From NCBI RefSeq assembly GCF_024700885.2, contig NZ_CP117016.1: a stretch of 64,000 nucleotides of DNA; one strand, given 5' to 3'. This document shows positions 15,892 to 20,415 of the stretch, in pieces (positions within the stretch are counted from its first letter, which is position 1; the number at the start of each line of letters is the position of its first letter). The notes under the pieces are model-generated. The model worked only from the letters and a program-made list of their open reading frames with translations. It did not search any database and was not told where the DNA came from. A program made the translations under genes and the position numbers. Source of the DNA: Escherichia coli. GTDB taxonomy: Bacteria; Pseudomonadota; Gammaproteobacteria; Enterobacterales; Enterobacteriaceae.

Positions 15892-16771
15892 CCTCCAGTT
15901 TCGCTTTGCATTCTATGTAAATGGCTTGTACGTTCTGCTGCAATTTCATTCCAGATGTCAGGCGATATGCTTCTGCAAAATATCGCTTCAAATCATCCAT
16001 GTTTTCTGCCTGAGCCATTTCATCACAAAGAAGTTGTGCTTTTTCCATAATTTCCTGCTGGCGTTTCCGTTCATCTTCGCGGATATATTCCTCTGATTTG
16101 TGCGGCATAACTGGTTCAGTCCACACACCTTCTTCTTCGTTTAGTACGTGAATAGCACTATCAAGACGTGATGCCTTAGGCCAATACTTGCTTGCACGCT
16201 TTACGACCGTCTTTCGCGCCATCTCTTCCCAGAATGTTTTCCACGGTCCATTCTTTGCCTTGCTCGTTGCTTCCACAGCTTTAATTTCTGCCAGACTCAT
16301 TTCTTCAGTCAGGTAGTCACCATCTGCTGTTTTAACCGTGCAATAACCACCAACAATAGAGCCTCGCTCACCAAATGCGTTGTATTTGTGGGTTGGTGCT
16401 GAATCAAGACCGTTTGATTCATAGGTGTCGTTTGAGTACACCAGTTTGCATTGCCCCCACTTAATTGATCCTGTCGACTGTGCAAGGTGAAGTAATCCCA
16501 TGTAACTGATATCAAGGCACACCATGCCGTCGCGAGGAACCAGATAAGCCAGTTTGCTGGCCGGGTTTAAGGTGATGCCGATCGCCGCAACGTTGATGAT
16601 AGCGTTCTGTGCGCTGGTCGGATTTGCCAGTGCCGTTTTAGCCAGGTAATCATTTTTCTGGAAATACTGAATTGCAAACTGGCTTTCCTTAGCCCATGTC
16701 ACCGTCTGTTCAGTCAATGCTCCGCAGAATAACTGCTCCTGCTGTTTAACGAATTCAACGATATTGCTCAT
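15869..16771 (-). CDS. recT: RecT-family single-strand annealing recombinase
   Basis: 300-aa ORF with RecT-like core (GYCTVKTADGDY...EEMARKTVVKRASKYWP); occupies the lambda bet position. Confidence 0.8.
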   Translation of the reverse strand: MSNIVEFVKQQEQLFCGALTEQTVTWAKESQFAIQYFQKNDYLAKTALANPTSAQNAIINVAAIGITLNPASKLAYLVPRDGMVCLDISYMGLLHLAQSTGSIKWGQCKLVYSNDTYESNGLDSAPTHKYNAFGERGSIVGGYCTVKTADGDYLTEEMSLAEIKAVEATSKAKNGPWKTFWEEMARKTVVKRASKYWPKASRLDSAIHVLNEEEGVWTEPVMPHKSEEYIREDERKRQQEIMEKAQLLCDEMAQAENMDDLKRYFAEAYRLTSGMKLQQNVQAIYIECKAKLEVASEQTI

Positions 16772-17079
16772 GCTGCTTCTCCATAAATGTGTCTGCGTTT
16801 GAATATTGCGAAGGCATATTCAGCCTTAACTCTTTCGGTTATTGCATCCCAGAACCATTCAGCGGCTTTTTCCTGATAGTTACAGTCATCATCTTCCAGC
16901 CAGTCGATAGCGTCCTTAGTGTGTTCATCTGGTTTATATGAGCGAAGCATTTCGCTTATTGGGTCGCAACGTTTGCAGAGGCGATCAACTTCACTGTTGA
17001 TTCGTTCGTAATCTTCATCAGTAAAACTTGCGATTATTTGCGATATTTCACGCTTATCATTCAGAGTCAGAATCATCAT
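16768..17079 (-). CDS. Hypothetical early protein (103 aa)
   Basis: ORF with overlapping stop/start to recT. Confidence 0.5.
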   Translation of the reverse strand: MMILTLNDKREISQIIASFTDEDYERINSEVDRLCKRCDPISEMLRSYKPDEHTKDAIDWLEDDDCNYQEKAAEWFWDAITERVKAEYAFAIFKRRHIYGEAA

Positions 17080-17160
17080 CTTTCTCCTGTTCTTTGTGCT
17101 GATTGAGCATTTTGTTCATCTGACGAATGAATTCTTCGTCTGACCAGTTATCTGTAAAAC

Positions 17161-17313
17161 TCATTTCCTGCGATACCACGGAAGGTTGATAGCTGATTTC
17201 ATCTCTTTATTTGCTTCAAGCCACATTTTGGAATCACCAATAAATCTGGCTATTACTGCTTTGTTTTGTGCCGCACGAAGCATCTGGTGATTGATGGCTA
17301 TTTCATTGCGCAT
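17161..17313 (-). CDS. Kil-like small protein (50 aa), not in ORF track
   Basis: Hand translation MRNEIAINHQMLRAAQNKAVIARFIGDSKMWLEANKEMKSAINLPWYRRK; FIGD-containing small protein adjacent to the cIII-like gene, as kil is in lambda. Confidence 0.4.
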   Translation of the reverse strand: MRNEIAINHQMLRAAQNKAVIARFIGDSKMWLEANKEMKSAINLPWYRRK

Positions 17314-17432
17314 AACGCCTCCAGTTGTTTCTTTGCTGCTCTGATTAATTGTTTAACTCGGCGTGATAATTCAGATTCGTGCGGGTAGAAAGCGGACATG
17401 ACGCCGCTACCCGCGAGCTGAAAGTGCATCAT
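17298..17432 (-). CDS. cIII-like protease inhibitor (short)
   Basis: Internal start of ORF 17298..17537: MMHFQLAGSGVMSAFYPHESELSRRVKQLIRAAKKQLEALCAMK, pattern-similar to lambda CIII; preceded by GGAG. Confidence 0.45.
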   Translation of the reverse strand: MMHFQLAGSGVMSAFYPHESELSRRVKQLIRAAKKQLEALCAMK

Positions 17433-17496
17433 GGGTAACTCCTTATATTTGATTGCATAACGAAAACGCCTCGAGTGAAGCGTTATTGGTATGCAT

Positions 17497-17520
17497 ATAA
17501 AAAGGCCCTCACACTGGAGG
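17497..17520 (-). terminator. Putative leftward intrinsic terminator (tL-like)
   Basis: Hairpin GCCCTC-ACACTG-GAGGGC followed on the minus strand by a U-run. Confidence 0.35.
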
Positions 17521-17605
17521 GCAAAGAAGAGTTCCAATAATCAGAACAAGTCGGCTCCTGTTTAGTTACGAGCGACATTGCTCACATAGCAGACTCGTAA
17601 ATCTG

Positions 17606-17767
17606 CTATAGGCGCTTATTCGCATCGCATGACAACATCAAATTTTTCGAGATTACTTTGTCGCAACAATCCTTCTTCTACGCGGTCAGCTTTTCTATAA
17701 TTATCAAATTCGAAATGTTTAATTACTTCTTTTGTTTCTCGCTCTATAACTTCAACAATGTATTTCT
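17606..17767 (-). CDS. Small hypothetical protein (53 aa), not in ORF track
   Basis: Hand translation from ATG at 17767: MMNKKYIVEVIERETKEVIKHFEFDNYRKADRVEEGLLRQSNLEKFDVVMRCE; fills an otherwise unexplained gap; AT-rich. Confidence 0.3.
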
Positions 17768-17773
17768 TATTCA

Positions 17774-18070
17774 TCATTCTTCCCCAAGAGCTTTTCTGAT
17801 TGCTGCAAGACCTTTATTAACAGCTCCATACCATTCTGGATATGTTGTCGTTGTTCTATTTTTGGTTTGCTTAAGTAATAACTGAAGTGCTTCGAGAAGG
17901 TCAGGTGCTGCCGCTATTAGATTGGCATCTTCAATGCATTGAACTTCCTCACAGATTGCAATATACGAACGCCAGCCTGCGCCATTTTCAAGTGAGTCTG
18001 CCTGGATGATTTTAATCTCATCGCCATCCATCATTATTTCCCACTTACCTTCAGTACCTTTAAATTCCAT
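17774..18070 (-). CDS. Hypothetical early protein (98 aa)
   Basis: ORF between N and the cIII-like gene. Confidence 0.5.
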   Translation of the reverse strand: MEFKGTEGKWEIMMDGDEIKIIQADSLENGAGWRSYIAICEEVQCIEDANLIAAAPDLLEALQLLLKQTKNRTTTTYPEWYGAVNKGLAAIRKALGEE

Positions 18071-18109
18071 GTTAGCCTCTGTTGTTTATGCCAAAAATGA
18101 AGGCCACCA

Positions 18110-18361
18110 TCAGGCAGCCTTGTTGTAAATGTTGCAGGTATCAAGTAAGTAATTAGATGGAGCGCCATAAATTATGAATTCATCGTTTGTCGGGTCCATC
18201 TCCATCTCTTGGCCTATTGCCATTCTTGCGTCAGTGTCATCAGCGGCGAAACATAAAACAGCCCACGCACCCATTGTTTTAAAAAGAACTGCAATTGGCT
18301 GTGGTTTTACTGAATTTGCGTTAGCGCGAAAATCACAAATCGCACTTTCATGAAATTCCAT
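18110..18361 (-). CDS. Hypothetical early protein (83 aa), Ral position
   Basis: ORF immediately downstream of N in the leftward operon. Confidence 0.5.
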   Translation of the reverse strand: MEFHESAICDFRANANSVKPQPIAVLFKTMGAWAVLCFAADDTDARMAIGQEMEMDPTNDEFIIYGAPSNYLLDTCNIYNKAA

Positions 18362-18369
18362 ATCTCACC

Positions 18370-18696
18370 TCAAATAAGTGGTTTGCTGCCTAATTTCATT
18401 TTCTGGCGACCAACACAAGTCACGCCCATTTCACTGCGTGGCTTGCTGTACCATGTGCGCTGATTCTTGCGCTCAATACGTTGCAGGTTGCTTTCAATCT
18501 GTTCGTGGTATTCAGCCAGCGCCGTAAGGTCTATCGGATTCAGTGCGCTTTCTACTCGTGATTTCGGTTTGCGATTCAGCGAGAGAATAGGGCGGCTAAC
18601 TGGTTTTGCGCTTACCCCAACCAACAGGGGATTTGCTGCTTTCCATTGAGCCTGTTTCTCTGCGCGACGTTCGCGGCGGCGTGTTTGTGCATCCAT
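18370..18696 (-). CDS. N: Antitermination protein N
   Basis: Internal start of track ORF: MDAQTRRRERRAEKQAQWKAANPLLVGVSAKPV..., the arginine-rich motif of lambda/434 N. Confidence 0.9.
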   Translation of the reverse strand: MDAQTRRRERRAEKQAQWKAANPLLVGVSAKPVSRPILSLNRKPKSRVESALNPIDLTALAEYHEQIESNLQRIERKNQRTWYSKPRSEMGVTCVGRQKMKLGSKPLI

Positions 18697-18858
18697 CTGG
18701 ATTCTCCTGTCAGTTAGCTTTGGTGGTGTGGTAGGTGGGAGACCCATTTCGACCTGCTTCGGCCGACTTCAATTCGGCAATAGTTCCGCAGGCCTCGCCG
18801 CTTTACGTGCGACATATTCCCATCCATGAACCCTTCACCACACCCCAAAGCCTTCTGC

Positions 18859-18889
18859 TTTGAATGCTGCCCTTCTTCAGGGCTAAATT
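18859..18889 (-). promoter_or_regulatory. nutL: nutL (boxB hairpin GCCCTGAAGAAGGGC on the transcribed strand, plus boxA-like element)
   Basis: Plus strand shows GCCCTTCTTCAGGGC at 18859..18873, upstream of N in the leftward transcript. Confidence 0.6.
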
Positions 18890-18944
18890 TTTAAGAGCCT
18901 CACCTTCAATGGTGGTTAGTGCGTCCTGCTGATGGCTTAAAATT

Positions 18945-19012
18945 ACAAGAAAGATTGTATGTTGTAAACAAGAAATATTGTAAAAATGGGCGTGAAAAAC
19001 AAACTCCATTGT
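18945..19012. promoter_or_regulatory. OL operator cluster / pL region (three 434-type ACAA-N6-TTGT sites)
   Basis: ACAAGAAAGATTGT (18945..18958), ACAAGAAATATTGT (18968..18981), ACAAACTCCATTGT (18999..19012). Confidence 0.6.
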
Positions 19013-19062
19013 TTTTAAACGGAAAATAGTTTGTTTTTTGGTTGTCGAAATTGAGGTGAGGA

Positions 19063-20415
<1,353 letters not shown>

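Follow-up and report, generated by a model that had tools for sequence, protein, structure and literature searches.

The open reading frame (ORF) of 53 codons that lies between a 98-aa gene and cIII in the early-left operon of a lambdoid prophage is predicted, from the way in which its relatives have diverged, to be a genuine protein-coding gene under strong purifying selection. It is an ordinary gene and no discovery: the product is a hypothetical protein that is already on the public record and has already been screened. Unless another locus is named, positions given here are those of the window, the 64,000-nucleotide stretch of Escherichia coli DNA (contig NZ_CP117016.1) that was analysed, and the features discussed are collected in Table 1.

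Table 1. Features in and around the small ORF (window coordinates)
Feature	Position	Strand	Description
Second hairpin with T-run	17460..17484	-	AACGCTTCACTCGAGGCGTTTTCG, just upstream of the cIII ribosome-binding site
cIII, 44 aa	17298..17432	-	Pfam PF08134, E 2e-30; phrog_550
Intrinsic terminator	17499..17522	-	GCCCTCCAGTGTGAGGGC then CTTTTT; stem 17505..17522, T-run to ~17499
Structured spacer	17523..17585	-	Two short hairpins; nearly identical to the lambda ral-ea10 region and to HK97
Hairpin 1	17586..17609	-	10-bp stem ATAGCAGATT-TACG-AGTCTGCTAT; starts 7 nt past the ORF stop
53-codon ORF	17616..17777	-	RefSeq CDS WP_000981287.1; phrog_6949 member
Purine run GGGGAAG	17779..17785	-	Weak Shine-Dalgarno-like site within the end of the 98-aa gene
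98-aa gene	17774..18070	-	phrog_1273; directly upstream of the small ORF

Position, start codon and annotation of the ORF

An earlier note on this DNA had described a minus-strand ORF of 53 codons with an ATGATG start, and such a frame is present in the sequence, although the coordinates then given (17606..17767) are off by 10 nt. Both ATGs of the start are there as well, but the description is misleading in that only the second one is conserved. Among the relatives in the IMG/VR loci the first codon is ATG, GTG or ATA, and the second ATG is invariant. Since the second ATG is invariant and the phrog_6949 profile begins at residue 2, the conserved start is predicted to be the ATG at 17774 (17774..17772), giving a protein of 52 aa. 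The ORF is AT-rich, as had been noted, with a GC content of 31.5% compared with 48.4% for the window. Shuffles of the local 1.1 kb contained on average 0.94 ORFs of at least 53 aa that begin with ATG, and the length of the ORF is by itself within chance. The evidence for a gene is its conservation.

The ORF had been taken to be unannotated, which turned out to be wrong. It is annotated in RefSeq and in phages mEp043, mEp213 and APC_JM3.2, it belongs to phrog_6949, and under the name orf149 it has been made synthetically and put through a screen. A lambdoid prophage in the chromosome of E. coli MLI114 matches the region with 100% identity, and NZ_CP117013.1, which has the identical sequence, carries the ORF as CDS WP_000981287.1 with the name 'hypothetical protein'. 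A further RefSeq entry for the protein is WP_001037043.1. The 52-aa form with the second-ATG start is gp45 of phage mEp043 (YP_007111545.1), and phages mEp213 and APC_JM3.2 encode the 52-aa protein too. Residues 2-53 of the window protein are 100% identical to the phage copies (mEp043 gp45 and orf149/UDP0149/ATN92755.1), and the annotation of the window prophage differs from these copies in beginning one codon earlier (53 aa compared with 52). The phrog_6949 profile HMM matched the ORF with an E value of 3.4e-40 and 136.9 bits, with residues 2-53 on profile positions 1-52 of 52, and this full-length match places the protein in that family.

The annotation pipeline of NCBI (PGAP) leaves the identical and intact 53-aa ORF uncalled in at least one other genome, that of E. 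coli PU-1 (L019, 1529..1690). Three further genomes are without an annotated feature under the ORF match, and one of them, strain G3, has a frameshifted copy. Given this uneven calling by PGAP, the gene should be called consistently; beyond such annotation hygiene the significance of the finding is small.

Evidence for coding

Protein searches found relatives at 75-91% protein identity in Atlantibacter hermannii, Cronobacter sakazakii and metagenomes. The earlier note had proposed dN/dS across related prophages as a check of the ORF, and this was calculated by the pairwise Nei-Gojobori method on a codon alignment of the window copy against divergent copies with 75-87% protein identity. The pS values were 0.63-0.91, indicating that synonymous sites are saturated, and the pN values were 0.08-0.18. 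With synonymous sites saturated, dN/dS was 0.03-0.13 where it was computable, in agreement with a coding sequence. The variable columns at codon positions 1, 2 and 3 numbered 14, 10 and 44, respectively. The frame of the ORF alone is open throughout the relatives, which were drawn from E. coli, Cronobacter, Atlantibacter and metagenomes, and all other frames gain stops in some of them.

Frameshifts or stops in orthologous regions had been named as evidence that would count against the ORF, and this check was mostly passed. In a sample of 76 viral contigs from IMG/VR that encode a relative of the ORF, the full frame was found in 73 loci. The other three are broken by a nonsense codon at 23, by a stop after codon 35 and by a frameshift close to the start. 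In E. coli G3 (L018, 1548..1691) the frame is lost through a 1-nt insertion, again near the start; one IMG/VR contig has the same allele, which makes it probable that the insertion is genuine and did not arise in sequencing. A minority of broken alleles fits a dispensable gene. Three database variants (P0010, P0011 and P0012) either change in sequence or end directly behind ...RVEE(G), at codons 35-36, which suggests that recombination has repeatedly used a breakpoint there, within the gene.

On the plus strand, a 75-aa antisense ORF at 17658..17885 overlaps the small gene as well as the last part of the 98-aa gene. Because stops interrupt it in three divergent relatives (L003, L007 and L008), we regard it as a by-product of the AT-rich coding sequence and not as a true gene.

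Operon context and distribution

The gene order is LexA-family CI-like repressor, N, an 83-aa gene, the 98-aa gene, the ORF, cIII, kil and RecT. By this annotated order the ORF had been placed correctly in the early-left (pL) operon, between the 98-aa gene and cIII. The gene previously called cIII-like, which bounds the gap on its downstream side, matches the Pfam cIII family PF08134 (Table 1). Its CDS is named just 'hypothetical protein' in the RefSeq record here, and 'protease FtsH-inhibitory lysogeny factor CIII' elsewhere.

Wherever a homologous locus has enough flanking sequence, the repressor and N precede the ORF, and cIII, kil and the recombination genes follow it. The ORF was found in 153 of 5426 complete E. 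coli genomes and the flanking cIII/kil block in 2241 of them, and the ORF is missing from lambda, HK97 and HK022 at the same junction. Its upstream and downstream partner genes vary among loci. Such variable presence between conserved flanking genes corresponds to an accessory gene in the sense of Silas et al. 2023, and the ORF is firmly supported as an accessory gene that is non-essential and horizontally shuffled. The description of a moron, which has its own promoter and terminator, did not apply: no promoter-like site was found upstream, the start overlaps the upstream stop, and the terminator belongs to a shared lambdoid block.

A hairpin with a T-run (AAGGCTGCCTGATGGTGGCCTTCATTTTTGG) at 18100..18121 on the minus strand overlaps the stop of the 83-aa gene (18110..18361). 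The sequence here agrees with that of lambda ral at its end, down to the final codons (...KAA stop); by Pfam, however, the 83-aa protein (phrog_2471) is not a Ral. It seems that the gene was exchanged at a junction within those codons.

Protein family and predicted fold

An exhaustive profile search added 18 more distant representatives, all of 49-88 aa. The pattern of the family is Y-I-V-E-V ... T-x-E-V-V-K ... E-R-K-A-D-R-V-E-x-G-L-L-x-Q-x-N. Distant members P0014, P0018 and P0024 lie on short metagenomic contigs of small ORFs without annotated families. Using the family alignment, AlphaFold predicted a beta-beta-alpha-beta fold, a three-stranded sheet on one helix, with a pLDDT of 94.7. The predicted strands are at residues 6-12, 17-24 and 46-52, and the predicted helix is at residues 27-40. 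In a Foldseek search against viral models, the topology recurred in many small phage proteins that are themselves uncharacterised (TM-scores up to 0.88), and no informative structural neighbour was found for the AlphaFold model. Searches of the ORF protein against Pfam, NCBIfam and PADLOC, the last of which models defence and not anti-defence proteins, gave nothing above threshold. The source table lists no transmembrane segment for the 52-aa protein, and its net charge by residue count is about -1.

FlaG (PF03646) was matched by the ORF in Pfam with an E value of 0.021 and 15.4 bits, compared with a cut-off of 23.8, over residues 4-21 only. When the family profile was searched against PDB sequences, a FlaG-type match was obtained with an E value of 3e-4 (B. 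subtilis YvyC, PDB 2hc5), and 7 of 24 family members match FlaG weakly (best E 0.006). The likeness to FlaG/YvyC is an 18-residue beta-hairpin motif, KYIVEVIERETKEVIKHF compared with EYYVKVIEDSTNEVIREI. We did not assign the protein to FlaG, as the match is below the Pfam gathering threshold, covers 18 residues only and is not backed by the fold search.

T4 Dmd, ATfaRel2, ClpS and MzrA have 4-11% identity to the ORF protein and a very common fold, so that theirs is a resemblance only. An antitoxin like Dmd or ATfaRel2 was also considered and rejected, since no cognate toxin or partner gene lies beside the ORF.

Published screen of the protein

The 52-aa protein is UDP0149 (ATN92755.1, phage APC_JM3.2) in Supplementary File 3 of Silas et al. 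(10.1101/2023.04.06.535777). According to that study, the file holds 200 accessory genes chosen from variable regions of enterobacteriophage genomes; after synthesis, these were integrated into ECOR strains, with expression driven by an inducible promoter, and were tested for conditional lethality and counter-defence. The text numbers its orfs as the file numbers the UDP entries, so UDP0149 is orf149 (10.1101/2023.04.06.535777). In the main text and its phenotype lists orf149 is absent; the genes named with a phenotype are orf1, 7, 24, 48, 63, 92, 98, 116, 126, 143, 145, 148 and 184 among others, and orf184 is placed in an accessory region that also holds ral (10.1101/2023.04.06.535777). Because orf149 is not named among the phenotype genes in that text, its over-expression in the E. 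coli strains tested apparently gave no notable result.

Membership of a counter-defence or anti-restriction family was not supported. No homology to such proteins was found in Pfam, PHROGs and NCBIfam, and orf149 is outside the phenotype lists in the text of that paper, which is a weak argument because it is one from absence. Literature searches by the accessions, the phrog id, Y8K6 and the tL2a/tL2b names yielded nothing usable.

Proposed role

The reading that we prefer, and consider moderately probable, is that of a small soluble protein, encoded by a dispensable accessory gene of the N-dependent pL operon, which acts by binding, in stoichiometric amounts, a protein of the host or of a rival phage. 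In lambda, early-left transcription proceeds from pL through N antitermination. Because no promoter-like site precedes the ORF on its strand, the ORF would be transcribed from pL after N-mediated antitermination. Its translation would take place mainly by coupling to the upstream 98-aa gene, since its own Shine-Dalgarno match is weak. The 52-aa protein may then bind or modulate a host or competing-phage protein stoichiometrically, with the invariant helix surface (YRKADRVEEGLLRQ) as the putative contact surface.

Ral, cIII, Kil and Gam are small pL proteins of lambda that are dispensable for growth and act by binding host proteins. Because these proteins of the same region bind host proteins, the role of a binder is our best guess. 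The ORF product shares with them the operon, the variable region and the small size, and it has no sequence or family relationship to Ral, cIII, Kil or Gam. A fold that is shared by many small uncharacterised phage proteins (TM up to 0.88) and no listed transmembrane segment lend weak support to the idea. In its position, the ORF sits between the conserved intergenic linkers that flank ral and ea10 in lambda.

The variable Ral/cIII region of lambdoid phages is known to encode several proteins that modulate the host or counter its defences, and the ORF product is another small protein in this region, a reasonable and unremarkable candidate. A wider reading, possible though on the whole doubtful, is that the protein is an uncharacterised host-takeover or counter-defence factor, perhaps acting with the Y8K6-like gene, the target of which would have been absent from the screened strains, and that, separately, hairpin 1 is a functional RNA element of the pL transcript involved in processing or stability.

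Upstream gene and translation signals

The 98-aa gene ends in a TGA stop (17774..17776) that shares nucleotides with both candidate ATGs. The start of the small gene overlaps or abuts the preceding stop in all ten sequences compared (the window, mEp043 and eight other relatives), in the form of ATGA, TGATG, TAATG or TGAATG. A ribosome-binding site had been proposed in front of the ORF, and the purine run GGGGAAG is indeed directly upstream of the start; it is a weak match to a Shine-Dalgarno sequence and matters less than the overlap of start and stop. Divergent relatives have AAGGAGGAG or GGGGAGG at this site, and the purine-rich stretch reads AAGGAGGAG in three lineages and the weaker GGGGAAGA in the window.

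The purine-rich ribosome-binding region is encoded by the last codons of the 98-aa gene, K-A-L-G-E-E. The tails of the upstream genes were compared between the window (17774..17800, minus strand) and L003, L005 and L007-L012. Their N-terminal parts are unrelated or highly diverged, but all 9 finish with K-A-[IL]-G and then two or three residues, most of them acidic. The simplest reading of these sequences is that a ribosome-binding site is embedded in the tail of the upstream gene and that translation of the small gene is probably coupled to it. No promoter-like site upstream of the ORF was found in a scan of the minus strand, and promoter-like hits overall did not exceed those in shuffles.

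The C-terminal half of the preceding gene (AAPDLLEALQLLL ... AIxKA[LI]GEE) is common to most loci, and two of the upstream genes were annotated or matched as members of the XkdD/Y8K6 family (PF27050). In Cronobacter the upstream gene encodes a 53-aa Cys-rich protein, in which the common part is only the last approximately six residues. In E. coli PU-1 it is cut to a 32-aa remnant that keeps the KALGEE tail, and the small ORF is intact. The pair of 98-aa and 52-aa genes moves as one block among mEp043, APC_JM3.2 and E. coli prophages.

These observations bear on a serious alternative, in which the two genes form a cassette and the 52-aa protein works only together with the 98-aa phrog_1273/Y8K6-like product as its partner, chaperone or antidote. 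Such dependence would explain the lack of a phenotype when the 52-aa protein is expressed alone, as orf149 was tested alone and is not named with a phenotype in the text on the screen. The overlapping or abutting stop and start in 10 of 10 sequences, the C-terminal half shared in most loci and the movement of the pair as a block are also in its favour. However, the partner is not constant, being an unrelated small Cys-rich protein in Cronobacter and a remnant beside an intact small ORF in PU-1, and the tail may be conserved for no other reason than that it encodes the ribosome-binding site used by the small gene. We therefore consider an obligatory partnership unlikely, and prefer a protein that acts as a binder on its own account as the product of an accessory gene.

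A covarying hairpin after the stop codon

The stem of hairpin 1 still pairs in its variants from other lineages (GATAGCCGATTC/GAGTCGGTTATC, GATAGCTAATTC/GAGTTAGCTATC and GTGTATTCATTC/GAGTGGATACAC). In an alignment of 15 distinct variants, 92.6% of the cells were paired, compared with 27-41% when the partner was slid by 1-3 columns, and 23 cells were changed on both sides, compared with 8.1 in shuffles, of which 0 of 500 were as high; one lineage is misregistered by an indel in the loop, and these figures understate the covariation. Of 13 distinct variants, 11, with every lineage covered, fold to a clean hairpin of 10-14 bp at the same place, and in the 2 others, each with a single mismatch, the stem persists with an interruption. 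For all 13 the strand of the leftward transcript folds more stably than the complement, because of G-U pairs. Hairpin 1 is present as a single copy in the window. We know of no described function for it, and we regard it as a small curiosity, modestly more interesting than the ORF itself.

HK97, lambda and most of the 117 viral contigs sampled carry the GTGTATTC variant of hairpin 1 behind unrelated genes; the lambda version sits between ral and ea10. Since this variant follows unrelated genes, hairpin 1 was not taken as an element specific to the small gene. Rfam returned no match over 16500..19500 at E values up to 1, and the hairpin region was for this reason not assigned to DicF or another known sRNA family. 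A pairing of the loop with downstream sequence (TTACGAG/CTCGTAA) is by inspection not conserved in the Cronobacter lineage and was treated as chance.

The protein might instead be a regulator that binds nucleic acid, for example hairpin 1, and affects how the pL transcript is processed, how stable it is or whether it ends ahead of cIII. Some RNA-binding domains have split beta-alpha-beta folds. All lineages with the gene also have a covarying hairpin 7 nt past its stop, and behind the hairpin come terminators that control transcription into cIII, kil and the recombination genes. However, the HK97/lambda variant of the hairpin is present in lambda, in HK97 and in 111 of 117 (~95%) sampled loci without the gene. 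As it occurs in such loci, behind unrelated genes, hairpin 1 appears to be independent of the protein. The net charge of about -1 is also unlike that of typical nucleic-acid binders, and no nucleic-acid-binding family was matched. Hence, we judge a regulator of this kind to be very improbable, and a binder of a host or rival-phage protein is retained as the preferred role.

That the ORF is no gene, but a chance open frame in AT-rich intergenic DNA whose conservation stems from an RNA or DNA element, is barely credible and was effectively refuted by the codon-position bias, dN/dS and frame conservation: local shuffles match its length (mean 0.94 per 1.1 kb), its Shine-Dalgarno match in the window is weak, PGAP leaves an intact copy uncalled in at least one genome and a few alleles are truncated, but the substitutions are overwhelmingly at third positions (14/10/44) with synonymous saturation at 75-87% protein identity, the alternative frames including the 75-aa antisense ORF acquire stops in relatives, a distant protein family of the same length exists, and the fold is predicted with confidence.

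Intergenic blocks and terminators before cIII

The gap around the ORF had been described in the earlier note as otherwise unexplained, but the remaining 155 nt consist of conserved lambdoid intergenic blocks. The 186-nt region folds with a z value of -3.97. Homology of the HK97/HK022 type begins at 17583, and the sequence at 17499..17585 is nearly identical to the lambda ral-ea10 spacer, terminator included. The leftward hairpin with a U-run that had been seen at 17497..17520 is present as the intrinsic terminator of Table 1. The 'putative terminator' annotated in HK97 maps to 17522..17499 of the window, and in lambda this element corresponds to the terminator that directly precedes ea10, which we take to be tL2a. 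The sequence at 17460..17495 is nearly identical to that just before cIII in lambda (ea10-cIII intergenic), and the second hairpin with a T-run is identical in sequence to the hairpin before lambda cIII, presumably tL2b.

Unlike lambda, the window prophage has no ea10 between the two terminators, and ea10 is cleanly absent in HK97 too. Compared with lambda, hairpin 1 of the window is a compensated sequence variant, and the cassette of 98-aa and 52-aa genes is inserted between this hairpin and the conserved linker downstream of ral (window 18100..18121). From the covarying hairpin and the terminator-bearing linkers it can be seen how the pL operon exchanges its accessory cassettes, with the junctions staying in place.
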